A stretch of DNA of 64,000 bases, from assembly GCA_028703445.1 (NCBI GenBank), contig JAQVMW010000008.1, positions 6,223-70,222 of the forward strand. Reading direction: 5' to 3'. Both the position numbers and the translations under genes were made by a program. Positions 4,160-49,611 of this stretch are shown piece after piece. The stretch comes from Candidatus Peribacteraceae bacterium. Lineage in GTDB: Bacteria > Patescibacteriota > Gracilibacteria > Peribacterales > Peribacteraceae. Below the pieces are notes generated by a model that saw only the letters and a program-made list of their open reading frames with translations, searched no databases and had not been told where the DNA came from. Every line of letters begins with the position of its first letter. Position 1 is the first letter of the stretch.

Positions 4160-4263
4160 GTTTCATCTGCGTTCTCTGCTTCTTCAAACAGGCCTGTTTT
4201 CTTGACTCTGTGAGTCCGGAATGGGAAGCTGACGCCGACGTCATGGCTCGTGCGGGCATGACC

Positions 4264-12102: not shown

Positions 12103-14403
12103 TCATTCACACGTAATCCCCAGCCACGTTTTGATGCGCCTGAGGATAATGGCACGACGGGGGGAGGACAGGGGGATCCACTTGTCCACACGGGCACAGA
12201 TGCGCTGGGTGCGTGCTGAAGACAGGGATGAGGATGTCATGCCTCCGGAAGTGACGAGCGTCGAGGGGAGGGAACCCGAACGGAAACGTTGGTGGGAGGA
12301 AGAGGATGAAGCCGAAGATGCGGAGGGACGGAGAGAAGGATTGGTGAGGAGGTGATAGGGATCGAGGGATGAGAAAGAGGAAGCAGAAGAAGCAGAGGAT
12401 GTAGAAGAAGCAGAGGATGTCGAAGATGATGGAGTAGTACCCTCCCACCACTCCACGAAATCTGCGGGGGCGAGGCCGTCTTCGTAGAGGCGGCGCCAGT
12501 AGGTGGCACCGCCACCGGCACCGGGGGTAGCAGAGGCCGTGCTGAGGGTATAGCTGAGCGCCTCGTTGGTGTCTGCATCGTCTGCATTGGTGCCGTCGGT
12601 GCAGGCGATGTATACGGTCTTGGTTCCATCACTTCCGAGGTTGGGGGTTTCGCAGGAGTGGGACTGGGTGCCTCCGCCGGAGCAGAGGGTGTCGTCACTC
12701 ATCTGGGCGTACGTTTCATCACCGTCGAGAGAGAGGCGGCAGGTAGCGTTCTCATCGGTCGTGAAGGTGATGGTCTGGGTGGAATCGGTGATGGTGGAGG
12801 CGGAGGCGGGGGAGAAGCTGGAGGGGACGGGAGGGGTGGTGTCAAACCCCCAATTAACAGTGTTTCCGCCGTCTAAAAGATCAGTATATGTGGGCGTTAA
12901 ACCGCCGGAAGCGTCTGAATCAGTCACCTCTGCATAATCAATGGCAAAAGTGCCATTGGCAGATAAAGACCACTGATTGCCTGGACTGTCAGAAACAAGA
13001 TTTACCCTGTCATCATCATCAATGCCGTTAATAGTAAGCAATCCTGCGACAGTGATAGTGCCGGCATTATCAAAAGTGAATATTGAATCTGCGGAATCAT
13101 TGGCAGCATCAGTAAAACTAAGATTATAGTAATCCATCATAGCCACGGTGATCGCGGTACCAGTGTAACTAACTGTGCCGGATGTAACACTAAACGCTCC
13201 GGTATCAACGCCATCATATTGAGAAACTGTCACTGGCGTGCCAGTAGCGCGAGACAAGGTAAGAGTATAAATTGAAGGATCAAGTGTTGCACTATATGCA
13301 TTCGTTGTCTGGCCTAAAGTTAAGCCATAAGTAACAGTAGTATCACCACCAAGAGTATAAGTGCAATTTGCGGTAGGTGTCGCGAGATAAGCAATTCTAA
13401 GCATATAATAGCTCGTTCCCGCAATCGTTGTTGCGCCATCACCCCTATAGATAACGGTAATGCTTGTTGAGGTGCTAAAAGCGCCCGTAGGATTGCCACC
13501 AAATGAATTAATCACCACAGGCTGGCCGCCTGTGCTGGCATCTGTGCCAGTTAAAGCAATAATTTTATTTGTTCCTGCAAGCGTTACAACAAATGCATTG
13601 GCTGTTTGGCCTAGAGTAAGAACATTGGTAACCGTAACATTGCCTGCAAGGGTATAGACACGGTCAGCAGTTAAGGCAGCGCCAACGCCAATACCAAGAT
13701 TATAATAGGTGGTAGCTTTAACGTTTTGGGTTAAATTCCTTCTAAAGTTTACCGTATTACCGCTCGCTGTTGCAGTCAGCGTGGGCGTTATAGAACTGGC
13801 TAAATAATTAAGTGTGGAATTCGTCCCTTGCGTCCATGCGCCGGTGCTTCCCATATTTGTAACAGTAGCCGTTCCGTTATTGGTAACAGTTTTTCCTGCG
13901 GCAATTGCGAGAGTGCCCGATAAAGCAATACTGGCTGTGCTGTCTATTGTGTGGTCATCGCTGATTGTTATGGGGGCGGAAATCGTGCCCGAGCCGTAAA
14001 TTGTCTTTGACGCACCGGAAAGTACGATGGCGGTTGCTCCGGAAATTGTGCCATCCACCGTGAGGTCGCCGGCCACGGTAATTCCATTCGTGCTCGTTGC
14101 AATTTCAATGTTTGCGGATGAATCATTTAAATCAACCACTGTCACGCTTCCGGTGTTAATTGTTACAGTGCCCGAACCCGAGTTTGAATCAAAATACACG
14201 CTTCCTGTGCCATCGGGCACGCTTGCCCCTCCGCTTCCACCCGTGCTCGTCGACCAATGCGCCGTGTCGGTCCAATCTCCGGTTCCGCCTATCCAGTAGC
14301 GGTCAGGCGACTCCGCAAAGATAAAACTGGCGTTGTTTAAAAACAACGAGCAAACCAAAACAAAAATACTAATCGATTTCACTGATTTAAAAAATAATCC
14401 CAT
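12103..14403 (-). CDS. Large secreted surface protein: beta-helix/adhesin-like Thr/Gly-rich N-terminal region plus a Ser-rich C-terminal region
   Basis: It has a signal peptide (SIFVLVCSLFLNNASFIFA) followed by DRYWIGGTGDWTDTAHWS. Internal repeats include YTLAGNVTVTNVLTLGQTANA and YTLGGDTTVTYGLTLGQTTNA. There is a poly-Ser tail and a strong GC shift inside the ORF. Confidence 0.8.
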   Translation of the reverse strand: MGLFFKSVKSISIFVLVCSLFLNNASFIFAESPDRYWIGGTGDWTDTAHWSTSTGGSGGASVPDGTGSVYFDSNSGSGTVTINTGSVTVVDLNDSSANIEIATSTNGITVAGDLTVDGTISGATAIVLSGASKTIYGSGTISAPITISDDHTIDSTASIALSGTLAIAAGKTVTNNGTATVTNMGSTGAWTQGTNSTLNYLASSITPTLTATASGNTVNFRRNLTQNVKATTYYNLGIGVGAALTADRVYTLAGNVTVTNVLTLGQTANAFVVTLAGTNKIIALTGTDASTGGQPVVINSFGGNPTGAFSTSTSITVIYRGDGATTIAGTSYYMLRIAYLATPTANCTYTLGGDTTVTYGLTLGQTTNAYSATLDPSIYTLTLSRATGTPVTVSQYDGVDTGAFSVTSGTVSYTGTAITVAMMDYYNLSFTDAANDSADSIFTFDNAGTITVAGLLTINGIDDDDRVNLVSDSPGNQWSLSANGTFAIDYAEVTDSDASGGLTPTYTDLLDGGNTVNWGFDTTPPVPSSFSPASASTITDSTQTITFTTDENATCRLSLDGDETYAQMSDDTLCSGGGTQSHSCETPNLGSDGTKTVYIACTDGTNADDADTNEALSYTLSTASATPGAGGGATYWRRLYEDGLAPADFVEWWEGTTPSSSTSSASSTSSASSASSFSSLDPYHLLTNPSLRPSASSASSSSSHQRFRSGSLPSTLVTSGGMTSSSLSSARTQRICARVDKWIPLSSPRRAIILRRIKTWLGITCE

Positions 14404-14541
14404 GCTTTAGTTACAGTATTGTATAAAAGAGAATAGGCATACCCGACGGGAGGAGTTGACTCTCGGCATTGGCGGAAGTGTAAGGAAGAAACCTGCGCGA
14501 AACGATTGACGTTAAACTTGTATGCAGGGCTGGTTTCACTC

Positions 14542-15090
14542 ATGCTGGAGCCGATGCCGAATATCCTCCTCGTCACCGAAGACGGTACTCCGATGGGCAC
14601 GGCGGAGCGGGAAGCTGCGCACGCATCGCCCGGCATGTTGCACCGCGCTTTTTCTGTGTTCGTCTTCCGCGGTGGCCGTCAGGAACTGCTGATTCAGCAA
14701 CGAAGCAAAGAGAAGACTCTCTTCCCTCTTGTATGGGCCAATACCTGCTGCAGTCACTTGCGGGAAGGCGAAGTGCTCCCCGATGCGGCTCAAACAAGGC
14801 TCCACCAGGAACTCGGCTTCACCTGCCCGCTGAAAGAAATAGCTTCCTTCGTCTACCGCGCCGAAGATCCCGCAGGACGGGGCACGGAGTACGAGTACGA
14901 CACGATCCTCATCGGGAACATCCAGGGGAACCCGCCGCTCAAGCCAGACCCACAGGAAGTAGCCGCGACGAAATGGATCGCAACCGAGGAGCTGACAAAG
15001 GACATGCATGTGCACCCTCTGCTCTACGCGCCGTGGTTCCACTTGGCTCTTCCCATGGCAATGCGATGGCCACGAAAACTACACTATTAA
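14542..15090 (+). CDS. idi: Isopentenyl-diphosphate delta-isomerase, type 1 (Nudix fold)
   Basis: It carries LHRAFSVFVF...LLIQQRSKEKTLFPLVWANTCCSH and ...EYEYDTILIG. ATG 14542 is preferred over TTG 14506. Confidence 0.85.
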   Translation: MLEPMPNILLVTEDGTPMGTAEREAAHASPGMLHRAFSVFVFRGGRQELLIQQRSKEKTLFPLVWANTCCSHLREGEVLPDAAQTRLHQELGFTCPLKEIASFVYRAEDPAGRGTEYEYDTILIGNIQGNPPLKPDPQEVAATKWIATEELTKDMHVHPLLYAPWFHLALPMAMRWPRKLHY

Positions 15091-15182
15091 AAAAAACGGA
15101 ACGAAATGATTAAATTGTTAAATGGCTCAATTGATATTGCACCGGCTCCACTCTCGCTTGCGAACAATGTAACCATAGAACA

Positions 15183-15968
15183 ATGTATCAATACTCCTCC
15201 GACGTGATTCCAGCACCATCCTCATCCTCCGGTCTTCACATCGCCATCATCCCCGACGGTAACCGCCGCTGGGCTCGGTCGCGCGCCTGGTATCCCTGGC
15301 AGGGCCACGAAAAGGCGATCAAGAACTTCCGCACGATCACCGACTGGTGCCAGGCCGATCCGCGCATCGCCGTGGTCACGGTCTGGTGCTTCTCGACTGA
15401 GAATTGGAAACGCGACCCGCAGGAAATCACGAAACTCATGAAGCTTCTGGAGAATTACCTTGAGAAAGAGCGACCCACATTCCAGAAGAAAGAGATCCGC
15501 CTGCTCCATTCGGGACGCAAAGACCGCATCCCCGCTTCCCTCTCGTCATTGATTCAGACCATTGAGGAAGAGACGAAACACTTCTCCGATTTCACCCTGC
15601 ACATTGCCCTCGATTACGGCGGCAAAGATGAAATCCTCCGAGCATGCTACCGTTCCCAACAAGCCAACCCTTCGACTTCGCTCAGGGCAGGCAAGCCAAC
15701 AACCGAACAAGCCAACAACCGAACAAGCCAACCAGCACACACGCACGATCAGGATTTCCTTCGTGCCTTCCTCGATCATCCCGAACTTCCGGACATCGAT
15801 CTCATCATCCGCACTTCCGGCGAGCAGCGGACGAGTAATTTCTTCCTCTGGCAGAGTACGTACGCCGAGTGGGTCTTTTTGGATACGTTCTTTCCGGACT
15901 TCACGACGGATGATCTAAAAAATGCCGTGGACGGCTTCGCGAAGCGTTCCCGACGATTCGGAGGATGA
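15183..15968 (+). CDS. uppS: Undecaprenyl/isoprenyl diphosphate synthase (cis-prenyltransferase) with a low-complexity insert
   Basis: It carries HIAIIPDGNRRWAR, DYGGKDEI and DLIIRTSGEQRTSNFFLWQSTYAEW. Residues encoded by 15654-15752 are repeat-derived. Confidence 0.9.
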   Translation: MYQYSSDVIPAPSSSSGLHIAIIPDGNRRWARSRAWYPWQGHEKAIKNFRTITDWCQADPRIAVVTVWCFSTENWKRDPQEITKLMKLLENYLEKERPTFQKKEIRLLHSGRKDRIPASLSSLIQTIEEETKHFSDFTLHIALDYGGKDEILRACYRSQQANPSTSLRAGKPTTEQANNRTSQPAHTHDQDFLRAFLDHPELPDIDLIIRTSGEQRTSNFFLWQSTYAEWVFLDTFFPDFTTDDLKNAVDGFAKRSRRFGG

Positions 15969-15987
15969 AAAATGTTGTCACCACTAT

Positions 15988-16023
15988 GCGTGTCATCCTG
16001 AGCCCTGTCGAAGGACGACACGC
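15988..16023 (+). repeat. Hairpin repeat of the CCTGAGC...GTCGAAGG loop family
   Basis: The stem is gcgtgtcatcc/ggacgacacgc (1 mismatch) and the loop is tgagccctgtcgaa. Confidence 0.6.
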
Positions 16024-16089
16024 ACTGATCCGGTGCCATGGTTCGACAGAGCTCACCATGACACCTCGCATGCAAAACACTCCATTCCC

Positions 16090-16260
16090 ATGAAGCACAC
16101 CGCCGTCGCACACGGCAAAATCATTCTCACCGGCGAATATGCTTTCGTGAAAGGCAAACCTACGGTTTTCCTTCCACGGACCATCCTTTCCCTCTATGGT
16201 ATCGCTCCAGCGCGGGAACCCGCGAGACCCGCGCTTCGCGATGGCTACTTTCATTTATGA
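16090..16260 (+). pseudogene. 57-codon ORF carrying only a mevalonate-kinase/GHMP N-terminal motif, followed by REP-like sequence
   Basis: MKHTAVAHGKIILTGEYAFVKGKP compares with the mvk N-terminus MKYSSVAHGKIILTGEYAVVFGHP. The nucleotides differ at many synonymous sites. A degenerate REP (ccagcgcgggaa...cccgcg) lies at 16207-16240. The stop overlaps the mvk ATG (ATGA). Confidence 0.5.
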
Positions 16261-17126
16261 AATATTCCTCCGTTGCGCATGGGAAGATCATATTGACCGG
16301 AGAGTATGCGGTTGTGTTTGGGCATCCCGGCATCGCCGTTCCCGCTCCCCTCGCCATGCAGGCAACCTTCGAGGAGAACGCTGCAAGTCGTGACCTCACG
16401 CTCAAGTGGCTGGGCATCAGCGGAGGGGAGGCATGGGAGGACTACGCGCGCAAGATCATCCTGCATGTGGAACAGGCAAAGAGCGCTTCCTTCCGCGGGA
16501 CGCTGACGATCCGTAACCAGCTGCCCTTGAAGAAAGGCATGGGTTCCAGTACCGCACTCGTGATCGCACTCACACGCTGTCTGCTCGGACAGGGAAAGCG
16601 TATCGAAGCCCTCGCGATCGAAGATGCGATGAACCCGGGACACAGCGGCATCGACTTCGCCGTGATCTGGGAGGAACGGCCGCTCTACTTTAGAAAAGGG
16701 CAGGAGCCGCAAGTCATCACCCTGTCCCCGCATCTGCTCAGGGGAGCACTTCTGGTGGATACCGGCACGCCCGACCAAACAACACCAGAGCTCGTTTCGT
16801 GGGTGAAGGAGCGGACAGACGATCCTCGTGTGAAACAAGCCCTGATTAACATTGGGAAATGCACGGAGAGGCTCCGGAAGGGCGAAGACATCCGTACGGT
16901 CTTCCGCGATCATCACCGGTCCCAAGTGGCTCTGGGAGTCGTCCCGAAGCCCGTGCAGATTCTCATCAAAGAGATCGAGCGGCTGGGCGGAGCGGCCAAA
17001 GTGCTGGGAGCGGGCGGCAGGACAGGTGGCGGAGGAACGGTGCTCGCGCTCCACAAGAATCCTGATCTCATCCTGCCGGTCATTCGGAAGAATGCGCGTG
17101 GATTTTTGCCGCTATTCCATCTCTAG
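16257..17126 (+). CDS. mvk: Mevalonate kinase (GHMP family)
   Basis: It has the N-terminal motif HGKIILTGEYAVVFGHPGIAVP and the GHMP phosphate-binding motif KGMGSSTA. The 289 aa length fits. Confidence 0.85.
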   Translation: MKYSSVAHGKIILTGEYAVVFGHPGIAVPAPLAMQATFEENAASRDLTLKWLGISGGEAWEDYARKIILHVEQAKSASFRGTLTIRNQLPLKKGMGSSTALVIALTRCLLGQGKRIEALAIEDAMNPGHSGIDFAVIWEERPLYFRKGQEPQVITLSPHLLRGALLVDTGTPDQTTPELVSWVKERTDDPRVKQALINIGKCTERLRKGEDIRTVFRDHHRSQVALGVVPKPVQILIKEIERLGGAAKVLGAGGRTGGGGTVLALHKNPDLILPVIRKNARGFLPLFHL

Positions 17127-17896
17127 GAAAACTTTGGCGCTCCCATGAGTTGCCTCAATTTTTCAATGATGATACCGCGTTTTTCTTTGTACCATGAGAC
17201 GAGATTCTCCATCTGAACTCGAGCCTTTTCCTCATCTGCCGAGACCGAAGCTTGATTACCCGTTGCCTGCGAAAGTGAATGCTGAGCGTTAGTCAAAATC
17301 CTCGCCATGCGCCATGCTTCACACTCCTCATTGAGATCGGGGCTTCCAATCGTTGCCAAAATCTTCATCGCAGTTTCATGAATGAGACGGGAAACGAAAT
17401 GCTCCCCCGCCCCACTCCTGAAAAGCTCCTCCTGCTCACGATTCAAAACAAATCTCGAATCTGTCCCAATCATCCGTTCCACCGCAACTTGGAGATCTGA
17501 ATATCGAACCTGAAGGGGATCAATGAGTCCTTCCGCATCTGAAACAATGCGAATGAGGCGCCGCTCTGTATCTGTCTGAATGAGCAACATGTGCGAACAG
17601 ATAACATCCCCGGCTCTCTCCAAGAGAACATCCATACTGATCCCTCTCGTCGCCATTGCCTTCGACATGTTCGGTTCGAGAGCTCTCTCAAGCTCCGCTG
17701 CAGGGAAACGCAGCGTTTGAGAACGAGCGAATGCAACCGCATCGAAATCCTCCTTGATTGCATTGACCCTCGCCGCCGCCTCAAGTAATTCTTTGAAATC
17801 CAGCAAAGGAGAAAATGGGAAAAGGGTCTGGCAGTATAGAAAAAAACCACTATTCTGAAAGGAGTTTCCCTCACTTTTTGTGCGCTCCAAAGCCAT
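17123..17896 (-). CDS. Hypothetical protein, lower-GC, antisense-oriented inside the mevalonate cluster
   Basis: The ORF runs 17123-18118, but its upstream third overlaps mvaD, so it was trimmed to ATG 17896. It still overlaps the mvaD start by 17 nt, so the true start is uncertain. No recognisable motifs. Confidence 0.35.
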   Translation of the reverse strand: MALERTKSEGNSFQNSGFFLYCQTLFPFSPLLDFKELLEAAARVNAIKEDFDAVAFARSQTLRFPAAELERALEPNMSKAMATRGISMDVLLERAGDVICSHMLLIQTDTERRLIRIVSDAEGLIDPLQVRYSDLQVAVERMIGTDSRFVLNREQEELFRSGAGEHFVSRLIHETAMKILATIGSPDLNEECEAWRMARILTNAQHSLSQATGNQASVSADEEKARVQMENLVSWYKEKRGIIIEKLRQLMGAPKFS

Positions 17897-18890
17897 TTCC
17901 ACGCCCAATATCGCCTTCATCAAGTACTGGGGCAACCGCAATGATGAACTCCGGCTGCCCATGGCCCCCTCCCTCTCGATGACTCTGGACCGGCCGACAG
18001 TGAAAATCACCGTGGAAGATGCGGACACATTTTCGGTGCGCTCGTTCCTCGTCGATGGATCGGAGAAAACACTCAAAGAGAAAGACATCGATCGTTTTCG
18101 GAAAGTCGTTACGCTCATGCGACGCTATTTGGGAACCATCGGCGCCGAGGATGTGCTTTCGGAATCCATCGCAATCGCCGTCCGTTCACACATTCCGCCA
18201 GCAGTCGGTCTCGCCTCCTCCGCTGCCGTCTTCAGCTGCCTCGCAAAAGCGATTGCCGGATTCATTCGTGAAAAAAAGGAGCTCACGAACAAACAGGTGA
18301 GTATCCTTGCCCGGCTCGGATCTGGTTCGGCGGCACGGAGCATCTTTGGAGGGTTCTCAACACTCGAAGAAGGGAACGGGATGGAGATAGAAAATTCCTG
18401 GAGTGAGCAAATCGCCGACGAACATCACTGGGCTCTGTACGACTTCGTGACAATTCCTGCAATGGAAGAGAAGAAAGTGGGATCCACGGAGGGCCACGCT
18501 TCGTCTCATTCAAGCCCTTTCTATACGGAGCGCGTGCAAGCTATCCGCTCGCGCCGCCAGCGGGAGTGCATCGAAGCGATCCGGACAAAAGATTTTGAAG
18601 CACTCCAGCGCGTGACGGAGGAAGACTGCCTCGACATGCACCATGTGATGCAGACGCAGATGCCTCCGCTCCAGTACCTCAATGCGGAAACGCATCGGAT
18701 CGTCGATGCCATTAAAGAATTACGCACGAAGGAGCATCTGCCAGTGCTCTTCACCATGGATGCGGGACCAACAGTCCACCTGGTATGTCCAGAAGAGGGC
18801 AGATCAGCCGTTCTCTCCTTCGCCCATGCACAGAAGGGATGCACGATCTTCGAAACGAAAGTGGGATCTGGTGCATCGCTGATCGGATAA
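17880..18890 (+). CDS. mvaD: Diphosphomevalonate (or phosphomevalonate) decarboxylase, GHMP family
   Basis: It carries NIAFIKYWGNRN, GLASSAA and GSGSAARS. It starts at GTG, with gaaaggag upstream. Confidence 0.85.
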   Translation: MRSKAISTPNIAFIKYWGNRNDELRLPMAPSLSMTLDRPTVKITVEDADTFSVRSFLVDGSEKTLKEKDIDRFRKVVTLMRRYLGTIGAEDVLSESIAIAVRSHIPPAVGLASSAAVFSCLAKAIAGFIREKKELTNKQVSILARLGSGSAARSIFGGFSTLEEGNGMEIENSWSEQIADEHHWALYDFVTIPAMEEKKVGSTEGHASSHSSPFYTERVQAIRSRRQRECIEAIRTKDFEALQRVTEEDCLDMHHVMQTQMPPLQYLNAETHRIVDAIKELRTKEHLPVLFTMDAGPTVHLVCPEEGRSAVLSFAHAQKGCTIFETKVGSGASLIG

Positions 18891-18896
18891 AAAACT

Positions 18897-18924
18897 GCAG
18901 CGGAAGATCGCGATCTTCCGCTGC
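18897..18924. repeat. 28-bp perfect palindrome gcagcggaagaTCGCGAtcttccgctgc (family also at 41702 and 49612)
   Basis: The sequence is self-complementary. It lies between the mvaD stop and the HMG-CoA reductase start. Confidence 0.8.
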
Positions 18925-18944
18925 GGAAAGATTACAATGGCCCT

Positions 18945-20216
18945 ATGGATCTCCGTTCCCTTCCTGCCGGCCTGAATCCTGAAGAGCACTGCCGCGAACG
19001 GCGGGCGCGGGTCGAGAACGAAACAGTAACGGACCTTTCGCTCCTCCACACCGATGCCGGACGAATCGGTCAGGCCGACGAGAAGAATTGCGAGCAGATG
19101 ATCGGCTCTGTTCCCCTCCCCGTCGGCATCGCCGGTCCGCTCGCGATTACCTTCAGCTCCGGCGAAAAATCCAACGTCTTCCTTCCTCTTGCCACAACCG
19201 AGGCGGCACTTGTCGCGAGCGTCAATCGCGGATGCAAAGTTCTGTCGACAAGCGGAGGCGTTTCGATAAAATCCGTCTACCATGGCATGTCCCGATCGCT
19301 AGTATTCAAGCCAAAAAACAAGAAAGGACAAACGTTCACCTCCGCAATCAAAACTCTGGAACAAGAATGGAAACGTATCGGCGAGGCGACGAGCGCACAT
19401 CTCAAAATTCTCCGTTACGATCTCGATGAGTCCGACGGCTACACCTTCCTCACGATCTTCTGCGACACCTCGGAGGCCATGGGCATGAACATGACGACGA
19501 TCGCCGCACAAGCCATCGGCAATTTCCTTGCTCAAGAGCTTGATGCCGATCTCATCACCATTGCGGCAAACGTCGACAGCGACAAGAAGCCGAGCAGCCG
19601 CACGCACGACCGCGGCCGGGGATACGAAGTCACCGCGAAAGCGGATATTCCTTCTTCGATCATCGCGAATGTGTTGAAGACGACACCGCAGCAGTTGTGC
19701 GCCGTCGCGGACGCCAAGTTGCGCGTCGGATCCGCACTCGCAGGAGCCATCGGAAGTAATTTGCATGTGGCCAACGTGATCGCGGCTCTGTACCTGGCAA
19801 CGGGACAGGACGGCGCACACGTGGTGGAAGGATCGCTGGCGGATACGAAAATCGTGCCTTTGTGGACCTCTCCCCCACCTCCATCTCCTCCCCCGGTGGG
19901 GGAGGAGCGTCCCTTGATCCCCCTTCCCCCTCCGGGGGAAGGGTTGGGGATGGGGAAGAAACTTGCAGGCATACGAATAGAAGTCCGCCTGCCCGCCCTC
20001 CTCGTCGGCGTTCGCGGCGGCGGAACGGCTCTGCCTGCCCAAAATCAGTGCCTTTCGCTCATCTTAAAACCGCAACGCGGGATGCTTCCCGCGCTGCGGC
20101 GACCGCAGCAACTCGCGGAAACGATCGGCGCGGCCGTCCTCGCCGGGGAATTGAGTCTGCTCGCGGCACAGGCGACACAAACGCTTGCGTCTTCGCACAA
20201 AAAACTGGCACGGTGA
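18945..20216 (+). CDS. hmgA: HMG-CoA reductase, class I type, with an in-frame repeat-derived insertion
   Basis: It carries ENCIG-like EKNCEQMIGSVPLPVGIAGPL, EAALVASVNRGCK, SEAMGMNM, LVGVRGGGT and AVLAGELSL. Confidence 0.9.
   Translation: MDLRSLPAGLNPEEHCRERRARVENETVTDLSLLHTDAGRIGQADEKNCEQMIGSVPLPVGIAGPLAITFSSGEKSNVFLPLATTEAALVASVNRGCKVLSTSGGVSIKSVYHGMSRSLVFKPKNKKGQTFTSAIKTLEQEWKRIGEATSAHLKILRYDLDESDGYTFLTIFCDTSEAMGMNMTTIAAQAIGNFLAQELDADLITIAANVDSDKKPSSRTHDRGRGYEVTAKADIPSSIIANVLKTTPQQLCAVADAKLRVGSALAGAIGSNLHVANVIAALYLATGQDGAHVVEGSLADTKIVPLWTSPPPPSPPPVGEERPLIPLPPPGEGLGMGKKLAGIRIEVRLPALLVGVRGGGTALPAQNQCLSLILKPQRGMLPALRRPQQLAETIGAAVLAGELSLLAAQATQTLASSHKKLAR
19885..19943 (+). repeat. Two tandem C/T-rich-stem hairpins (CCCCTTCCYC-N5-GRGGAAGGGG family) inside the hmgA coding sequence
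   Basis: The first is ctcctcccc cggtg ggggaggag (19885-19907). The second is cccttcccc ctccg ggggaaggg (19921-19943). Relatives lie at 24932-24956, 32098-32120, 32159-32183, 39496-39547 and 39942-39979. Confidence 0.75.
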
Positions 20217-20296
20217 GAGTGAGAGTGGTTCTATTGCGAGATAGAACGGGTAAAATGGCTTTTTTAAGAGCAAAAAACGTCATGAGCGCAAACATT

Positions 20297-20817
20297 CCAG
20301 CGCGGGAAGCTTCCCGCGCTGGAATAGGACAGGAATGATAGATACCCATGACCCAGCGGCACCCTATTCAGAACGGACAGATGATGCTCGTAACAACGAA
20401 CACATGTAACCGCATGCGAATCTTCGTGGATTCCGCTTGCGCACGTCAAGTCATCGAAAGCCTGTACCGTGCACAATTGCATCATCCATTCTTTCTCCAT
20501 GGATTTGTCGTCATGCCGGATCACTGCCACATACTGCTCCATATTCCGGAAAACGGTTCCATCTCAAAAATCATGTATTGCTTCAAGCGATCTGTGTGCT
20601 TTGAGGTGGGAAAACCGATCTGGCAACGACGATTCCATGTCCGTCTTGTCGACAATGCATGGGAAGCTTTGCGTTACATCCACCTGAATCCAGTACGGCA
20701 AGGCATCTGCGAAGCGCCAGCAGATTATCCATGGTCATCCGCTTCTGGACGATGGGATGTCACTGATCTTTCAGAATGGTAATACAACCCAGCGCACGAA
20801 GCTTCGTGCGCTGGGTT
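20297..20817 (+). mobile_element. REP - RAYT - REP unit (REPtron-like)
   Basis: The Y1 transposase gene is flanked by GC-rich palindromes with an AAGCTT core. These lie at 20297-20322 (ccagcgcgggaagcttcccgcgctgg) and 20786-20817 (aacccagcgcacgaagcttcgtgcgctgggtt). Confidence 0.7.
20348..20782 (+). CDS. REP-associated tyrosine transposase (RAYT; IS200/IS605 Y1 HUH family)
   Basis: It has the HUH motif in VVMPDHCHILLH and the catalytic Tyr context ALRYIHLNPVRQG. The 144 aa length fits. Confidence 0.8.
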   Translation: MTQRHPIQNGQMMLVTTNTCNRMRIFVDSACARQVIESLYRAQLHHPFFLHGFVVMPDHCHILLHIPENGSISKIMYCFKRSVCFEVGKPIWQRRFHVRLVDNAWEALRYIHLNPVRQGICEAPADYPWSSASGRWDVTDLSEW

Positions 20818-20836
20818 TCTATGGCATACTGGCTAC

Positions 20837-22540
20837 GTGCAGTCCACCTGCAGAAATCCCTGGTGCTCTCAACCCTTCGAAGTCACCAAAGATGACCTCG
20901 CGTTCTACGACAAGGTCAGTCCCATCCTCAATGGGGGAAAATACACTATCCCCCCTCCGACACAGTGTCCCACATGCAGGAGACAGAGGAGACTTGTCTG
21001 GCACAATATCATGAACTTTCATAAGAGAAATTGTGACAGAACCGGAAGAGAAATTCTTTCAAACATCTCACCGGATAAGCCGCTCACAGTGTATGACATC
21101 AACGCGTGGTGGGAGGATTCTTGGGATCAGCATGAAGCAGGTCTTCCTCTTGATTTTCAAAAGACATTTTTCGAACAATTTGCAGAATTGCTTCTGGGAG
21201 CTCCGATACCCAGTCTGCATGCGCAACCATCCACGGACGAGAACTGCACGTACACGAACTACGCGTTATTCAATAAGAACTGCTATTTGATATTCCATGC
21301 AAACGGCAATGAGGATTGCCTGTATGGCTTTGGCGTGAAGTTCAGCAAGAACGCGGTTGATGTATTGAATTCATTCGATTCGGAAATACAGTACGAATGC
21401 ATCGATTGTGAGAAATGTTACAACTTGTACTCCTGCAAGGATTGCGAGAACTGCGCCGACTCGCTGTTCCTCGATGACTGCATCGGATGCAAGAACTGCA
21501 TCGCCTGTCACAACCTCCGCAACGCGGAGTTTTGCATTTTCAATAAGAAAACCTCCAAGCAAGAATTTGAAAAGCTGCGCGCGGCAATCCTGAACGGCTC
21601 GCATGCAACACGCGAGGAATGGAGGAAAGAATTCGAAAGCTTCCTGCTCCAAATGCCCCGACGCGCCACAATGATCCGGCAATGCGAAAATTGTTCGGGC
21701 GATCACCTGTACCGTTGTCAGAACGTTCACGAAAGCTATGACATAAAGGATGTACGGGATGGAAAATTCTTAGACAGAATATTCAATGGGCCAAATAGTG
21801 ATTTGTATGATGTCTACCAATTCGGTGTTAAAGCGGAGATGTGCTACGAGTGCTCGGTGGTGGGCATCAATGCGAACAACGTGTGCTTCAGTGCACTGTG
21901 CAGGAACGAAGTGAGTGACATCCTCTACAGCTTCTTCTGTCAGACATGCAAGCACTGCTTTGGCTGCGTGGGGCTCCACAATCAGGAATACTGCATCCTC
22001 AACAAGCAGTATTCAAAGGAGGACTACGAAACACTTGTGCCGAAGATTATCGAACACATGCAGCAAACCGGCGAATGGGGCGAGTTCTTTCCTGCCGAGC
22101 TGTCACCATTCTCGTACAACGAAACGATCGCACAGGAGCACTTTCCCATGACGCAACGAGAGATTGAGATGCGGGGATGGGAGTGGCGCGACCGGACGGA
22201 TGAGATCCCCAAAGTGAAGAAAACCATCCCAGCCGAAAAACTCCCCGACAACATTGCGGATATCCCCGACGACGTCATTCACTGGGCAATTGAGTGTGAG
22301 ATAACCAAACGACCCTTCCGGGTTACCAAGCAGGAATTGGCATTCTACCGCACAATGAGGCTGCCGGTTCCGCACCTGCATCCCGATGAGCGACACAAGC
22401 GGCGCACAGCAATGAGGAATCCCCGCAGGATCTGGAAGCGCCAGTGCGCAAAGTGCAACAAGCCGATCGAAACCACCTACTCGCCCGAACGACCAGAAAT
22501 TGTGTATTGCGAGGAATGTTATCTGAGGGAAGTGTATTGA
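20837..22540 (+). CDS. Cys-rich family paralog P1 (function unknown)
   Basis: It is 567 aa with 36 Cys by my count and has no signal peptide. The N-terminus is CRNPWCSQPFEVTKDDLAFY...CPTCRRQRRL. The C-terminus is QCAKCNKPIETTYSPERPEIVYCEECYLREVY. It starts at GTG. Confidence 0.9.
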   Translation: MQSTCRNPWCSQPFEVTKDDLAFYDKVSPILNGGKYTIPPPTQCPTCRRQRRLVWHNIMNFHKRNCDRTGREILSNISPDKPLTVYDINAWWEDSWDQHEAGLPLDFQKTFFEQFAELLLGAPIPSLHAQPSTDENCTYTNYALFNKNCYLIFHANGNEDCLYGFGVKFSKNAVDVLNSFDSEIQYECIDCEKCYNLYSCKDCENCADSLFLDDCIGCKNCIACHNLRNAEFCIFNKKTSKQEFEKLRAAILNGSHATREEWRKEFESFLLQMPRRATMIRQCENCSGDHLYRCQNVHESYDIKDVRDGKFLDRIFNGPNSDLYDVYQFGVKAEMCYECSVVGINANNVCFSALCRNEVSDILYSFFCQTCKHCFGCVGLHNQEYCILNKQYSKEDYETLVPKIIEHMQQTGEWGEFFPAELSPFSYNETIAQEHFPMTQREIEMRGWEWRDRTDEIPKVKKTIPAEKLPDNIADIPDDVIHWAIECEITKRPFRVTKQELAFYRTMRLPVPHLHPDERHKRRTAMRNPRRIWKRQCAKCNKPIETTYSPERPEIVYCEECYLREVY

Positions 22541-22545
22541 ACGAT

Positions 22546-22573
22546 CCTAGCGCACGAAGCTTCGTGCGCTAGG
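22546..22573. repeat. REP palindrome cctagcgcacgaagcttcgtgcgctagg
   Basis: It has the same 22-nt core as the copy at 20786-20817. It lies 6 nt after the P1 stop. Confidence 0.8.
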
Positions 22574-22640
22574 GATGCATTCCGAATACTGCTTACTTTT
22601 CGCAACACGCGAACCTACACAGGTATACTCACTTCATCCA

Positions 22641-23711
22641 ATGCCTTCTCCTCGCTCCGCCATCGGCACGTCGATCGCGACCGACAGTGCCATCGTCGGC
22701 TTCGGCATGTACATCCCCAGTAATCGCATCACGGTCGAAGAAATCGCGAAGCATTGGGGGCGTGACCCGAAGGAAATCGTGAGCGGACTCGGCGTGAAAG
22801 AAAAAGCAGTCGCGGGAGCCGATGAAGACAGCTTCACGCTCGCGTTCGAAGCCGGAAAGCAGGCCATCGCAACGGCGGGCATCCGCTCTTCGGAAATCTC
22901 GGCGATCTTCGCCGGTTCCGAATCTCACCCCTACGCGGTCAAACCCACAAGCGGCATGCTGGCCGCCGCCCTCGACCTGCACCCGTTCTCGTTCTGCGCG
23001 GACCTGGAATTCGCCTGCAAGGCGGGTACGGCCGGACTGCAGATCGTGGATGCCTTCGTCCGCAGCGGACAGATCACCTATGGAATGGCCATCGGTACGG
23101 ACAAAGCGCAATCGAAACCCGGTGACGCACTGGAATACACCGCAGCCGCGGGAGCGGCGGCGATTGTGGTCGGATCAGACACCTCCGAACACGCCATCTG
23201 CCGCATCGAACACACCATTTCCTTCACGACCGACACTCCCGACTTCTGGCGTACCGCGGATGCTCCCTATCCCGCCCACGCGGGGCGCTTCACGGGGGAA
23301 CCGGGCTACTTCCTGCACGTGCGCCAGGCTCTCACCGGAATCCTCGACATCACGAAAACGAAATTGAGTGACGTCGATCACGTCGTGCTGCACATGCCAA
23401 ACGCCAAGTTTCCGAACAAGATCGCCAAGGAATTCAAGATCTCAAAGGAGCAGATGCAGACCGGATTCATCGTGCCTCAGATCGGCAACACCTACAGCGC
23501 CTGCTCTCTGCTCGGACTCGTGTACGTGCTGAAACAGGCGAAGAAACATCAGAAGATCCTGCTCGTTTCGTACGGATCGGGTGCGGGGGCTGACGCCTTC
23601 CTGCTCACGATGCTCCGCGATGGCCCCGTTCTGCCCGTAGATGAGCGAAAACTTCGCTACATTTCCTACGGAGAGTACCGCAGAAATACGGAGAAAACAG
23701 CGGTTTCGTGA
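22641..23711 (+). CDS. HMG-CoA synthase, archaeal-type (thiolase-fold condensing enzyme)
   Basis: It carries GFGMYIPSNRITVEEIAKHWGRD, SESHPYAVKPTSGMLAAAL and DLEFACKAGTAGLQ. ATG 22641 is preferred. Confidence 0.8.
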   Translation: MPSPRSAIGTSIATDSAIVGFGMYIPSNRITVEEIAKHWGRDPKEIVSGLGVKEKAVAGADEDSFTLAFEAGKQAIATAGIRSSEISAIFAGSESHPYAVKPTSGMLAAALDLHPFSFCADLEFACKAGTAGLQIVDAFVRSGQITYGMAIGTDKAQSKPGDALEYTAAAGAAAIVVGSDTSEHAICRIEHTISFTTDTPDFWRTADAPYPAHAGRFTGEPGYFLHVRQALTGILDITKTKLSDVDHVVLHMPNAKFPNKIAKEFKISKEQMQTGFIVPQIGNTYSACSLLGLVYVLKQAKKHQKILLVSYGSGAGADAFLLTMLRDGPVLPVDERKLRYISYGEYRRNTEKTAVS

Positions 23712-23746
23712 AGAAAGAAGAACATGTAGAATCCTTCAGACATTCC

Positions 23747-24856
23747 ATGCAAAAGAACATCTCGCTTATTGGAATCGGCCAGACCACATTCGGGGAATGG
23801 TGGGGCAAGAGCCTCTTCACCCTCATCGAGGAGGCAGTGGATAGCGCCATTACGTCCGCCCCCTGCTCAGCACTGGATATCGACTTCATCATCGTGGCCA
23901 ACATGCTCGGAGAAGTAGTGAACGGTCAGGCACATCTGGGCGCAATCGCCTCCTCCCTGCTCCCCCATCACCCTCCCGCCATCCGCGTGGAGGCAGCCTG
24001 CGCTTCGGGATCGATTGCGGTACACACTGCCTGCGCTTTACTCGAGAGCGGACGCGCCGAGACCGTGCTCGTGGTGGGAGCTGAAAAGATGACCGATGCC
24101 TCCGGCGACGAAATCCAAACCGCGCTCATGGGCGCGGCAGACAGCGAGAAAGATGCTCCTTGCGGCCTCACCTTCCCCGGCATTTTCGGGCTCGTCGCGC
24201 GCCGGTACATGCACGAGTACGGCCTCACCCGTGACCAACTCAACCTCGTAAGTGCGCGGCACCACCTCAATGCCCTTAAAAATCCCTTCGCGCAGTTCCG
24301 GCAGGAAATCAGACCGGATCAGATCGGCGCGAGCACGATCGTGGCGGATCCCCTGCGACTCCTTGATTGTTCCCCGGTGAGCGACGGAGCAGCCGCCTGC
24401 ATCCTCTCGACAAAACACCGCTCCCCTATCCGCATCGCTGCCTCTCAGACGAGCACCGATTCCGTGAGCATCACTGACCGACCCACGCTCACCTCCTTCG
24501 CCGCCACCAAGGATGCTGTTGAGCGCGCGCTGGATGAGGCAAATATCTCGACGAGCGATATCGCGCACGTTGAACTGCATGACTGTTTCTCGATTGCCGC
24601 GGTCATTGCGCTGGAGGACATGGGGTTTGCGGAACCCGGCGAGGGAATTCAATGGTATGAGAAATTGCAATCCATGACCGTGAATGCCAGCGGAGGACTG
24701 AAGGCCTGCGGACATCCGGTCGCGGCAACGGGCATTAAACAGATCATCGATGTCAGTAAGCAACTGCAGAACTCCGGTAAACGTTTCGGTCTCGCCCACA
24801 ACTTTGGCGGCGTTGGCGCCACATGCTGTATCCACATTCTGCATCACTCCCCATAA
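23747..24856 (+). CDS. Acetyl-CoA acetyltransferase (archaeal-type thiolase)
   Basis: It carries ISLIGIGQTTFGEWW, the catalytic-Cys context VEAACASGS and the C-terminal NFGGVGATC. Confidence 0.8.
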   Translation: MQKNISLIGIGQTTFGEWWGKSLFTLIEEAVDSAITSAPCSALDIDFIIVANMLGEVVNGQAHLGAIASSLLPHHPPAIRVEAACASGSIAVHTACALLESGRAETVLVVGAEKMTDASGDEIQTALMGAADSEKDAPCGLTFPGIFGLVARRYMHEYGLTRDQLNLVSARHHLNALKNPFAQFRQEIRPDQIGASTIVADPLRLLDCSPVSDGAAACILSTKHRSPIRIAASQTSTDSVSITDRPTLTSFAATKDAVERALDEANISTSDIAHVELHDCFSIAAVIALEDMGFAEPGEGIQWYEKLQSMTVNASGGLKACGHPVAATGIKQIIDVSKQLQNSGKRFGLAHNFGGVGATCCIHILHHSP

Positions 24857-25007
24857 ATAATGCGATTGAACAACACCTTCAATCTCCGGCTCCTTCGCTA
24901 TTACCAACTGCCTCTGTTCGATTCCATGTCTCCTCTCCACCCGGAGGGGGGAGAGGGTAGGGTGAGGGGGCAAAAGACAAGAAAAGCATCATCTATTCCC
25001 CAAAACC

Positions 25008-25940
25008 ATGCATACTCCTGACTCCCCCGCCGTCACTGCGCGCTCCCTGGCCCGCCAAAAAAACCGCATGCTTCCAGGCACGTTGCTCTCCTTCACCACC
25101 GTCACCCATCCGCCCAAGGGATTTCCGGATCGCCCGCGCCTGATCGGGCTTATCGAACTCATGGATGGGCAGCGTGTCCTTGGAACACTCGCAGGAGTCA
25201 TGGAACCGAAGATCGGGCAGATGGTGATTCCGCGCATGCACTTGAGCCGCGTGAACGCAGAGGGATTGCGCCTGTACGAAATCGCCTACGAACTCACGGA
25301 GCGTGTGCGCGAACCGGAATCTGAAACAAAGAAATTCCCCGGATACATCCTCGCGCTCACGGGTCCGTCGGGCGTGGGCAAGACCACGGTCTCGCTGCTC
25401 CTGACGAAAATGCTCAGCGATTTCACAACCAAAGTACCCATCGTCACGAGCCGTTCTCCGAAGGAAGGTGATGATCAGGAGTACGACTATGTCACTCCAA
25501 AAGAATTTGAGCGAATGGAGAAGGGCGGAGCACTCGTCGCATGGACACATCTGCCCTCGGACTCAGAACAACGCTCCTACGGATATCGCAAAGCAGATAT
25601 TCTGGCAATTTGGGAGCAGGGCAAGCTGCCGGTCGTGGTGACGGAAATGCATCTGCTGCAGGGACTTGCCGGGCACTATGGACGTCGCTCCATCCTCTCG
25701 TTCGGACTGCTGCCGCCGGGCGAGAGCAAGCGCGCCATGCTCAGCCACCTGCTGCACCGCATGCGTGCCCGAGGTCGCGAAACCGACGCTCAGATCGAGG
25801 AGCGGCTGCTCAATGCCCAGGCGGATTTGGACTACTTCACACGCGCCGCGCACCTGTTCGATTTTGTCCTTGTCAATGAGGATTTGGACGCCGTACTGCA
25901 GGTCATCAAGGGCCATGTTTTGGAGCTTGCGAAAGCCTAG
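25008..25940 (+). CDS. Fusion protein: DUF35-type OB-fold domain (no zinc ribbon) plus guanylate-kinase-like P-loop kinase
   Basis: The N-terminal part is GTLLSFTTVTHPPKGFPDRPRLIGLIELMDGQRVLGTL...IGQMVIP (DUF35 OB pattern). The C-terminal part is ILALTGPSGVGKTT, TSRSPKEGDDQEYDYV and SYGY (Gmk-like). Confidence 0.65.
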   Translation: MHTPDSPAVTARSLARQKNRMLPGTLLSFTTVTHPPKGFPDRPRLIGLIELMDGQRVLGTLAGVMEPKIGQMVIPRMHLSRVNAEGLRLYEIAYELTERVREPESETKKFPGYILALTGPSGVGKTTVSLLLTKMLSDFTTKVPIVTSRSPKEGDDQEYDYVTPKEFERMEKGGALVAWTHLPSDSEQRSYGYRKADILAIWEQGKLPVVVTEMHLLQGLAGHYGRRSILSFGLLPPGESKRAMLSHLLHRMRARGRETDAQIEERLLNAQADLDYFTRAAHLFDFVLVNEDLDAVLQVIKGHVLELAKA

Positions 25941-26002
25941 AAGTCCACACCATCATTTTGAGTTCATGCAACGCTCACACCATTCAGCCCGAAGGGAGAT
26001 TG

Positions 26003-26011
26003 TGGTATAAT
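26003..26011 (+). promoter_or_regulatory. Candidate extended -10 promoter element (TGgTATAAT) upstream of the GT4 gene
   Basis: tgtggtataat lies ~42 nt before ATG 26053. The -35 element is weak (ttcagc). Confidence 0.35.
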
Positions 26012-26052
26012 CATGAGATTATTCGCGTGCGTGCGCGAAGAAACAAACATCC

Positions 26053-30735: not shown

Positions 30736-30832
30736 CTTGTTGGGTTATTGGGTTTTTGGCTTGTTGGTTTCCTTGCAAATCTTAAGCAGGCGAACAAGCT
30801 AACCAGCTAACAAGCTAACCAGCTAAGAAGCT
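30726..30832. terminator. Long imperfect hairpin built from AAGCTAACC/GGTTAGCTT-type words after GH15
   Basis: agcttcttagcttgttgggttattgg... pairs with ...caagctaaccagctaacaagctaaccagctaagaagct. The first 12 nt are perfectly complementary. Confidence 0.5.
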
Positions 30833-30856
30833 ACAACCTAAAAAGCTCCCTATGCT

Positions 30857-31747: not shown

Positions 31748-32097
31748 GCGAAGGAGGATCTTCCCACTCATCCCTATGTTCCAAGACGACGATGACAACA
31801 ACGGTAAGAAACCGGCTCCCCCGCCCGAGCCTCCGTTCCCCGAGGAAGACGACAGCAATCTGGGAGATGACTTCACGAAAGTAGGCGAAGGCAAAGATCT
31901 CACGAATGACCAGCAATGATGGAAAGGGTACATCTGCCTGCTCATCGAAGAGGCTGGAGGCAAGTTCCGCACCGAGCTCATGGATCCCAAAAACCCCCGT
32001 GGCGGCGTGCGCTGCGTCGCTGCGACGCAACCGATCTTCGAGGAGTTGTGCCAATTTGTGTTTAAGGAATGAGTTTGAAACAAACCCCTCCCCCTTC

Positions 32098-32183
32098 CCC
32101 CCTCTCCACAAGAGAGGGGGAACGCATGTTATTTTGTCGCACTACTAAAAAAGACGCTCCCCTTCCTCTCGTGGAGGAAGGGG
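32098..32183. repeat. Two C/T-rich-stem hairpins immediately downstream of maf
   Basis: The first is ccccctctc cacaa gagaggggg (32098-32120). The second is ccccttcctc tcgtg gaggaagggg (32159-32183). The second abuts the maf stop codon. Confidence 0.7.
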
Positions 32184-39422: not shown

Positions 39423-39495
39423 TTAAGCCATATTCTTCAGTATTTTTGCTCTTTTGTAAATAGTTTTCGCAGCCTGCTGGAATTGCCCCACCCCC

Positions 39496-39547
39496 CTTCC
39501 CCCCTCCCCGCTCATCCCACGATGTTTCCTCCACGGGGAGGGGGAAG
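39496..39547. repeat. C-rich/G-rich hairpin (14-bp stem, 23-nt loop)
   Basis: cttcccccctccccg ... cggggagggggaag. Confidence 0.6.
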
Positions 39548-49605: not shown

Positions 49606-49611
49606 TCTATC

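Follow-up and report, generated by a model that had tools for sequence, protein, structure and literature searches.

A dispersed palindromic doublet within the reading frame of a Peribacteraceae HMG-CoA reductase

We analyzed a 64,000-nt stretch of DNA from a Candidatus Peribacteraceae bacterium (GenBank assembly GCA_028703445.1, contig JAQVMW010000008.1, positions 6,223 to 70,222 of the forward strand; hereafter the window), in which the gene of a class I HMG-CoA reductase (HMGR) contains an in-frame insert made by a member of a dispersed palindromic repeat family. The insert has a net length of 33 codons (99 nt) and includes a 93-nt doublet of two inverted hairpin modules. We consider it likely that this doublet is a small non-autonomous element, similar to REPINs (doublets of repetitive extragenic palindromic, REP, sequences) and to MITEs (miniature transposable elements with inverted repeats), which sits in a permissive loop of HMGR as a nearly neutral passenger and leaves the enzyme functional. 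An initial annotation made from the sequence alone had described an in-frame insertion of ~35 codons derived from two hairpins of an intergenic repeat family. The alignments, the hairpin positions and the copies found in metagenomes bear out this description including the preserved frame, but the alignment with the nearest ortholog (P0002, 390 aa) corrects the size to 33 codons. Homologous proteins (P) and loci (L) are cited by number; P0003 is the HMGR of a second species (locus L001, two metagenome-assembled genome (MAG) assemblies), and L003 is the corresponding locus of a sister genome.

The doublet and its host gene

The host gene, the insert and the parts of the repeat element are located in the window as follows.

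18945-20216, plus strand: class I HMGR gene, intact, 423 aa (Pfam, PDB and Foldseek matches)
19857-19967, plus strand: coding segment P305-A341, without counterpart in insert-free orthologs, encoding PLWTSPPPPSPPPVGEERPLIPLPPPGEGLGMGKKLA (alignments and AlphaFold2 model)
19869-19961: repeat element, a 93-nt palindromic doublet, 79/93 (85%) identical to the consensus of the metagenome copies; one long imperfect hairpin as a single strand
19869-19907, minus strand: module 1 (reverse), with a C-rich tail at 19869-19884 and hairpin 1 at 19885-19907 (CTCCTCCCCC-GGT-GGGGGAGGAG); its reverse complement has the family signature with 2 mismatches
19908-19920: 13-nt spacer between the modules (CGTCCCTTGATCC), the most variable part, in which 9/13 bases differ from the P0003 copy
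19921-19961, plus strand: module 2 (forward), in which hairpin 2 (19921-19943, CCCTTCCCCC-TCC-GGGGGAAGGG) is joined by TT to the G-rich tail GGGGATGGGGAAGAAA (19946-19961)

The identification of the host gene as HMGR, already made in the initial annotation, is upheld by a full-length match to Pfam PF00368 (E = 1e-86, 291.6 bits, profile positions 2-368 of 368) and by the PDB match to 6hr7 (E = 2e-56), with 8ecg and 1dq8 also matched; among solved structures, its closest matches are the enzymes of Methanothermococcus (6hr7), Arabidopsis (HMG1, 8ecg) and human. The AlphaFold2 model superposes on class I HMGR structures, with 6hr7 as the top Foldseek match (TM ~0.7). The residues E86, K214/K215, D289 and H418, which we take to be the equivalents of the human catalytic residues E559, K691, D767 and H866, are invariant across our alignment of HMGR homologs (A1), and the GGGT motif (G358-T361) is present and likewise invariant in this alignment. 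Both features by which we judged class I membership, the full-length domain and structure match and the catalytic residues with the GGGT motif, are thus found in the protein. The gene is under purifying selection, as the comparison with the sister gene in L003 gives dN = 0.113, dS = 0.534 and dN/dS = 0.21. All named HMGR homologs belong to Candidatus Peribacter, Peribacteraceae or Peregrinibacteria.

The position and the size of the insert follow from several alignments. Residues 301-342 of the window HMGR align to only residues 344-352 of 6hr7 and 371-381 of 8ecg, which leaves ~33 residues without a partner. P0002, which is 84% identical outside the insert, has 7 residues where the window protein has 40, and contains TTVAAAKDGITIQTR where the window HMGR reads TKIVPLW…KKLAGIRIEVR. 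Counted from a conserved Thr to a conserved Arg, the stretch most often spans 15 residues in 120 homologs (74, with 45 longer and 1 shorter), compared to 48 residues in the window. These comparisons agree with the initial annotation in that class I HMGRs have only a short loop at this position, and an equally long loop was not found in repeat-free relatives. In the AlphaFold2 model (mean pLDDT 75.5), a strand at residues 300-307 and a strand at 340-352 enclose a coil from 308 to 339 (pLDDT ~45-58); the prediction for the insert is thus a disordered extension at the beta-hairpin tip of a surface loop. The low-confidence coil at the hairpin tip, the invariant catalytic residues and the dN/dS of 0.21 together favor a tolerated loop, and judging from the sequence and the model the enzyme carrying the insert is probably functional. 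Between the two outcomes considered at the outset, a tolerated Pro/Gly-rich surface loop or a compromised gene, the evidence therefore sides with the former. Candidate tryptic peptides from the insert region are IVPLWTSPPPPSPPPVGEER and PLIPLPPPGEGLGMGK.

At the nucleotide level, the two hairpins lie exactly at the coordinates originally proposed and both form perfect 10-bp stems. However, they are not tandem, as had been stated, but inverted copies of one module, since module 1 is identical to the reverse complement of module 2 at 30 of 39 bases and matches at only 18 in the direct comparison. Each module, ~40 nt in length, consists of a polypyrimidine-loop-polypurine hairpin followed by a G-rich tail. 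As RNA, the window insert folds into one long imperfect hairpin of -62.1 kcal/mol (0/200 shuffles were as stable), and the P0003 insert also forms one long hairpin (-73.9 kcal/mol, z = -5.0) despite the differences at 9 of the 13 spacer positions. The z-score of the DNA-level fold is modest (-2.2) because shuffles of such a biased sequence fold too; the evidence for the element is its family membership and not its folding energy. At gathering thresholds, Rfam reported only a tRNA in the whole window. At permissive thresholds, the region 19800-20400 returned only sub-threshold matches, to miRNA precursors (19866-19962, both strands) and the like, which show only a generic long hairpin. A known RNA family was accordingly rejected for the insert, as no Rfam family reaches threshold. 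As a separate observation, the purine arm and tail of module 2 (19930-19961, GGGGGAAGGGTTGGGGATGGGG) contain four G-runs with 2-nt loops, a canonical G-quadruplex motif, and module 1 yields the same motif on the opposite strand; from their sequence, the modules could each switch between a hairpin and a G-quadruplex.

The insert is confirmed by independent assemblies from public runs containing the window DNA, which are landfill metagenomes. The concern raised with the initial annotation, that the insert might be an assembly chimera, would involve repeated k-mers and draws on two facts: contigs of run X2 break within the element, matching the window exactly up to 19876 and from 19883 onward, and the module at 19921-19955 is common to many contigs. 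It is nevertheless contradicted by a single Logan contig of run X1 (1270 nt) that spans 19500-20167 and crosses the insert with 0 differences, by the identity of the X2 contigs to the window on either side, by the presence of the HMGR protein on two contigs, and by the homologous insert at the same position of P0003, in two further MAG assemblies of another species, so that a chimera has practically no probability left. Run X2 also contains an allele shorter by 99 nt: a low-depth relative in which 19848 and 19989 are joined through only 41 nt.

Dispersal of the family and recurrent insertion into HMGR loops

To describe the family, we scanned metagenomes with a pattern consisting of hairpin 2 and its tail, which gave 26 matches in 24 stretches. 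Most of these stretches have the same doublet architecture, with at most three copies on one contig and mostly AT-rich flanks. The doublet copies are ~92-98 nt long, and the 17 copies that were aligned share the architecture, with the consensus TcTCCCCCACCCCtggCCCCTCCCCCGGAGGGGGAGGGG – 14-18 nt spacer – CCCTTCCCCCaCCGGGGGAAGGGTTGGGGATGGGGGAGAA. Many other contigs in runs X1, X2 and X4 match 19921-19955 within unrelated flanks, and the polypyrimidine/polypurine doublet family is also contained in other Peribacteria loci. In the window, the family signature (purine arm and G-tail) has 4 matches against 0.01 expected by chance. The copies that the initial annotation had placed at 24932, 32098, 32159, 39496 and 39942 are all present, and all lie between long open reading frames (ORFs).

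24932-24970, plus strand: intergenic singlet module, located in the gap from the thiolase gene to the next; the sister genome has an identical copy
32085-32198: intergenic doublet of a reverse module (32085-32122), a 36-nt spacer and a forward module (32159-32198); RNA fold -58.7 kcal/mol, z = -5.1
39486-39991: two intergenic modules, reverse (39486-39547) and forward (39942-39991), in a 575-nt gap between two minus-strand genes

The element is unusually easy to read through. Its copies were stop-free in 84 of 102 frame tests (mean 4.9 of 6 frames), compared to 30% for random 95-mers of window composition, and this near absence of stops in all frames is due to the arms, in which a pyrimidine run precedes a purine run. 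Long ORFs with Pfam support contain at least seven of the 26 metagenome matches, on contigs of which several may or may not come from Peribacteria. Genes with in-frame copies include the following.

L072: UvrD/PD-(D/E)XK helicase-nuclease, in which the repeat splits UvrD_C
L065: GT4 glycosyltransferase, with the repeat before the Glycos_transf_1 domain
L080: CarA, with the repeat between its two domains
L060: Eco57I-like restriction-modification enzyme, with two repeat copies
L071: HsdR-like enzyme, with tandem modules
L064: 1520-aa helix-turn-helix (HTH) protein, with the repeat near residue 346

In two of these genes the repeats neighbor a DUF559 domain. At 4326-4870 of L060, two direct doublet copies flank an in-frame DUF559 (Vsr-like endonuclease) domain within the Eco57I-like gene, and at ~9700-10300 of L071 a DUF559 domain adjoins the tandem modules in the HsdR-like gene. 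From the sequence, this arrangement looks like a domain cassette bounded by repeats.

Within HMGR itself, insertions of at least four residues among the 120 homologs concentrate at three sites, all of which are predicted coils in the AlphaFold2 model.

Loop A, residues 126-133: 18 sequences with an insertion
Loop B, residues 304-341: 32 sequences with an insertion
Loop C, residues 374-387: 27 sequences with an insertion

These loops take from 4 to 43 extra residues, and other internal positions have at most few insertions of this size. The DNA of loop B reveals different forms of the doublet family, namely singlets in forward (L083, TCCCCTCTCCCgccGGGAGAGGGGccGGGGGTGAGGG, and L084) and reverse orientation (L085), and the doublet in the window and in L001. 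Loop B of L086, on the other hand, is occupied by an unrelated long hairpin of GGACTTMGG units, and judged by their peptides P0006, P0007, P0011, P0022 and P0024 have the same GGACTTMGG-type element. The insertions enter loop B at 2, 4, 5 and 7 codons past the conserved Thr, and these differing entry points imply independent events and no fixed target nucleotide. The distribution points to hot spots that would reflect selection for permissive loops rather than targeted insertion. A 90-residue peptide around the insert, used as query, recovered only two fragmentary HMGRs, one of them with a singlet module, and no additional carrier of the doublet; P0003 as query yielded no closer relatives.

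Other repeats are translated in loops A and C as well. In loop A, P0003, P0006, P0014 and P0015 have an in-frame 111-nt multi-hairpin element (5147-5257 of L001 and the matching stretch of L008), which encodes NLRRRLSAEDPPKADEGG…GKPTSSLKE. In loop C of the L001 and L086 HMGRs, the heptamer CAAGCTA is translated four times; it is related to short repeats of the AGCTAAC/GCTTGTTGG type, which form a palindromic cluster at 30725-30833 of the window.

Loop C of the window HMGR contains a repeat of yet another kind, associated with a putative REP-associated tyrosine transposase (RAYT) gene immediately downstream.

20076-20096: REP palindrome CGCGGGATGCTTCCCGCGCTG, in frame, encoding part of PQRGMLPALR; loop C is 4 residues above modal
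20294-20817, plus strand: RAYT-like Y1 (HUH) transposase gene at 20348-20782 (Pfam Y1_Tnp, E = 7.8e-9) with flanking REPs at 20294-20325 and 20786-20817

A REP-type palindrome in the coding sequence had been noted at 20070-20097, and we located it at 20076-20096. It differs from the RAYT-flanking REP at 20301-20321 by 1 mismatch in 21, and being the same palindrome as in the RAYT flanks it belongs to the RAYT-associated REPs; the window has 4 matches to it (counting both strands of two palindromic sites) against 0.01 expected. With this REP in loop C and the doublet in loop B, the window HMGR has two different repeat families in frame. The PQRGMLPALR peptide is also present in P0002, P0004 and P0006 and, with one or two changes, in P0005 and P0009. 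RAYT-like homologs lie immediately 3' of HMGR in L003 (7301-7732, 94% identity) and L031 (2232-2657, 57%), with a remnant in L037, and a Y1_Tnp gene follows HMGR in 3 of 4 checked loci (L087, L089 and L090). The position of the RAYT-like gene directly 3' of HMGR is thus conserved in several Peribacteria and coincides with the in-frame REP of loop C: the loci of P0004, P0006 and P0009 have the RAYT-like homolog 3' of HMGR and share the peptide PQRGMLPxLR.

Silent-site divergence, probable recombination and competing explanations

Comparing the window HMGR with P0003 revealed an anomaly at the silent sites of the insert.

Outside the insert: dN 0.169, dS 1.29, dN/dS 0.13
Inside the insert: dN 0.176, dS 0.22, dN/dS ~0.8

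Third-position identity is 0.49 outside and 0.85 inside the insert, where it is equal at all codon positions, and of the four-fold-type silent sites in the insert 19/21 are identical, compared to 45% for the remainder of HMGR (Fisher p = 4e-5). The differences between the two inserts fall in the spacer (9/13), the loops and the edges, while the arms and tails (~62 nt) have a single change, a C-to-T that keeps a G-U pair. The flanks have no raised identity, with values of 0.42-0.49 at third positions up to 50 codons away on both sides. Both inserts share a private arm variant (CACCTCCATCTCCTCCC) and a spacer shorter by 6 nt, and these shared features suggest one origin for the window and P0003 copies. 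The hosts, however, are not each other's closest relatives, as the HMGR core of the window is 75% identical to P0003 and 84% identical to the nearest ortholog. To account for the anomaly, one has to assume that the element spread recently, that its arms were homogenized, or that selection acted on the nucleotides. The element of loop A shows a similar picture on its own: between P0003 (L001) and P0015 (L008) its dS is 0.11, compared to 1.63 for the rest of the gene, and a stem has changed in a compensatory manner from TCCGCC/GGCGGA in L001 to CTCCCC/GGGGAG in L008.

The comparison with the sister genome places the insert near the 3' end of a patch of lowered identity.

19550-19988: divergent patch of ~440 nt, 69-79% identical to L003 against 92-95% around it
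19400-19549: 95% identity to L003
19550-19849: 69-79% identity to L003
20000-20149: 93% identity to L003

Third-position identity to L003 is 0.456 for codons 201-303 and 0.72-0.86 for the other blocks (Fisher p = 2e-9), and over codons 201-250 the window allele is the outlier relative to all relatives. The patch is probably a recombination tract, so that the presence or absence of the insert relative to L003 would be part of a ~440-nt tract from an unsampled donor; the sampled relatives, P0003 included, have third-position identities of 0.40-0.66 to the patch and contain no donor. Over 14300-26100, 150-nt windows range from 69% to 100% identity to L003 with sharp shifts inside single genes, and 24840-25020 is identical in the two genomes. 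From this mosaic, related Peribacteria lineages seem to exchange short tracts of the mevalonate cluster very frequently by recombination. Part of the silent-site anomaly could come from such short-tract recombination, from seamless gain and loss, or from homogenization toward a family master.

In the explanation that we favor, a doublet of two inverted hairpin-plus-G-tail modules would have entered the turn of a surface beta-hairpin. Its translation would give Pro/Ser/Leu followed by Gly/Glu/Arg/Lys, that is, a flexible hydrophilic loop, and the frame-keeping length of the copy together with the permissive loop would make the insertion nearly neutral. Only three HMGR loops would tolerate extra residues, so surviving insertions of several hairpin families would accumulate there, and gain, loss and homologous recombination would together produce the patchy distribution. 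The original mechanism would be transposition, probably by a HUH/RAYT-type single-strand DNA enzyme, a type of enzyme suggested by the lack of a visible target-site duplication. We infer both that the enzyme has retained its activity and that the hot spots result from selection rather than targeting.

A number of results weigh against this explanation. A dS ~6 times lower in the insert is not predicted by the model of an old neutral passenger, and insert copies of one origin reside in distant HMGR hosts. In a neighbor-joining tree built from insert-free columns, the clade P0001-P0018 has 97% support and its inner nodes <50%, too little to tell gains from losses within the clade. No cognate transposase accompanies the doublet in the window, as the only nearby Y1 gene is flanked by a different REP type, and tblastn with the window RAYT-like protein found only HMGR-adjacent homologs and none in the repeat-bearing loci L059-L082 (~10 kb per locus). 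The 17 aligned copies show no target-site duplication, conserved target or insertion intermediate, and no public RNA run contains the HMGR stretch.

The silent-site pattern could mean that the palindrome itself is selected at the nucleotide level, as a DNA or RNA structure that might switch between hairpin and G-quadruplex, bind a protein, or influence how stable the mRNA is or how fast it is translated, and has been kept since an old insertion. The drop in dS and the excess of identical silent sites described above fit such selection, as do the confinement of the differences to spacer, loops and edges with one pairing-neutral change in arms and tails, the long hairpin kept in both copies despite spacer divergence, the like pattern with compensatory stem changes in the loop A element, and the four G-runs in the purine arm and tail. 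Most close orthologs, however, are intact without the insert, which is hence dispensable; unrelated sequences occupy the same place in other lineages, no Rfam family matches, and recent spread or gene conversion toward a family master would give the same pattern, so that we regard selection on the palindrome as rather unlikely. Separate, recent and site-directed arrivals in the window and P0003 lineages, by homing or by element transfer without flanks, would account for the low silent divergence of an insert between two saturated flanks, for host genes that are not nearest relatives, and for spacers as different as between unrelated family copies. Yet a common flank (CCTTTRTGGA), the private arm variant and the 6-nt spacer deletion point to one origin, the other loop B insertions enter at different codons and in both orientations and thus betray no precise target, and a homing enzyme is not present; we give these arrivals only a slim chance. 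Because in two independent cases, the loop B doublet and the loop A element, dS is 6 to 15 times lower inside than outside, these palindromes may be more than passive passengers, and we grant some likelihood, if a clearly minor one, to the broader idea that palindromes in Peribacteria coding sequence are either conserved at the nucleotide level or spread in a homing-like manner, without flanks, into the same loop of divergent co-resident lineages.

Two further explanations concern the fate of the gene product. A 33-residue Pro/Gly-rich segment and a strong hairpin could disturb folding, oligomer assembly or translation, and the insertion could thereby have crippled the enzyme and set the gene on the way to a pseudogene. 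This is very unlikely in view of the intact ORF, the conserved catalytic Glu, Lys, Asp and His with the GGGT motif, the low dN/dS against the sister gene, and the hairpin tip, whose length departs from the mode in 46 of 120 homologs; in addition, the second species retains the same insert in an intact gene, and the window HMGR resides in an otherwise intact mevalonate-pathway cluster (gene order from L001 and L003) with no second HMGR within the window. Being a self-contained structured unit between conserved blocks, the insert also invites comparison with an intron- or intein-like intervening sequence that is removed before the mature enzyme forms. Group I/II introns and inteins are far larger than 99 nt or 33 residues, however, and the insert has neither their size nor their junction or structure signatures: intein junction residues are lacking, no Rfam intron model reaches threshold, and the preserved, stop-free frame would be needless in a segment that is removed. 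We consider removal of the insert extremely improbable.

Relation to known repeat elements and the surrounding locus

The closest known phenomenon is that of the Rickettsia palindromic elements (RPEs), reportedly the subject of Ogata et al. 2000, and the closest known architecture is that of REPINs; the recurrent hot spots shared by several families and the silent-site anomaly are the features that we find most notable. RPEs are palindromic repeats of ~100-150 bp that are dispersed and lie in frame in unrelated housekeeping genes, with a peptide judged compatible with fold and function (PMC10969869). The window family behaves alike, as its 93-nt palindromic doublet is in frame in HMGR, other copies are in frame in a helicase-nuclease, a glycosyltransferase, CarA and restriction-modification enzymes, and the encoded peptide is predicted to be compatible with a surface position. 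This likeness is one of behavior, and we do not class the element as an RPE. The differences are the host, a Peribacteria bacterium from another phylum, within the candidate phyla radiation (CPR); the sequence, presumably unrelated; the build, with short polypyrimidine/polypurine hairpins and G-rich tails paired in a doublet; the coding capacity, open in nearly all six frames as opposed to the one conserved ORF of an RPE; and the occurrence of several Peribacteria families in the same three loops of one enzyme.

A REPIN is a doublet of REPs that forms a hairpin and is associated with a RAYT transposase (Bertels & Rainey 2011, PMC3116915; PMC3337134). The window element likewise comprises two inverted palindromic units with a short variable spacer that form one long hairpin, an architecture found in all 17 aligned copies, and its family is multi-copy, dispersed and mostly extragenic (26 matches in 24 metagenome stretches, besides the five modules between window genes) and shows no target-site duplication. 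The window also contains a RAYT-like gene flanked by REPs of its own, one of which recurs in frame within HMGR. In contrast to REPs and REPINs, which are extragenic by definition, the window copy lies within a coding frame, and its units have an extra G-rich tail. Nor was a cognate RAYT with the same REP found, as the RAYT-like gene is flanked by the palindrome CGCGGGAAGCTTCCCGCG and the ~10 kb searched per locus in L059-L082 contained none.

Bacterial MITEs that make in-frame fusions include ERIC, BOX and Coxiella QMITE1 (PMC10969869, PMC5896051). The window element resembles them in being non-autonomous, in having occasional in-frame intragenic copies, and in its terminal inverted repeats (TTCTCCCCCAYCCC and its complement; in the consensus, the two ends read TCTCCCCCACC... 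and ...GGGGATGGGGGAGAA). It differs in its much smaller repeat units, and neither a duplicated flank (in 17 copies) nor an autonomous parent insertion sequence (IS) was found. HUH Y1 transposition of the IS200/IS605 type involves recognition of subterminal hairpins, leaves no target-site duplication and allows seamless excision (PMC6006769). For the window family this is a mechanistic analogy, as it is linked to no enzyme and no excision product was observed, but seamless excision would agree with the patchy distribution of the insert. Full-text literature searches returned nothing on such in-frame palindromic elements in CPR bacteria.

For annotation, Pro/Gly-rich stretches in CPR proteins may be translated intergenic-type repeats rather than lineage-specific functional loops or assembly errors, for which peptides such as …SPLPPGEGxGxG… and …LTxALSLQRERE… would serve as quick flags. 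REPIN-like elements can apparently be carried in frame in a probably essential enzyme, in a phylum of small and dense genomes, and their polypyrimidine/polypurine design would leave almost every frame open. In the Peribacteria HMGRs, nature has in effect performed an insertion scan that may be useful for engineering class I HMGR, and the silent divergence of insert versus host, together with the mosaic relative to the sister genome, offers a system for studying how elements persist and spread among co-resident uncultured lineages.

In the surrounding cluster, the diphosphomevalonate decarboxylase gene (17880-18890) lies upstream of HMGR (gene order from L001 and L003). At 22600-25940, 3' of HMGR, an HMG-CoA synthase-like gene (ACP_syn_III_C), a thiolase gene and a gene for an OB-fold DUF35-type protein fused to guanylate kinase follow in an order shared with L001 and L003; a trio of HMG-CoA synthase-like, thiolase and DUF35-type proteins is known from archaeal mevalonate pathways. 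Two further REP-like palindrome types occur in the window. GTAGCGGAAGATCGCGATCTTCCGCTAC palindromes occur at 18897-18924 (between the decarboxylase gene and HMGR), at 41702-41729 and at 49611-49640 (within a paralog array), and CCCAGCGCACGAAGCTTCGTGCGCTGGG palindromes at 20786-20817 and 22546-22573 bracket a 567-aa gene. The paralog array consists of ten tandem genes on the minus strand (39998-60429), which encode proteins of ~550-595 aa rich in Cys-X-X-Cys-type repeats and fill 20 kb, and an eleventh paralog is found at 20837-22540 on the plus strand, directly after the RAYT-like gene; in Pfam, these proteins have only a weak treble-clef zinc-finger match at the C terminus. Finally, a pyrimidine-rich repeat with a 9-nt period (CTATTTCTT-like, ~8 or more units) is located at 4077-4202, with an inverted partner at 4000-4046.

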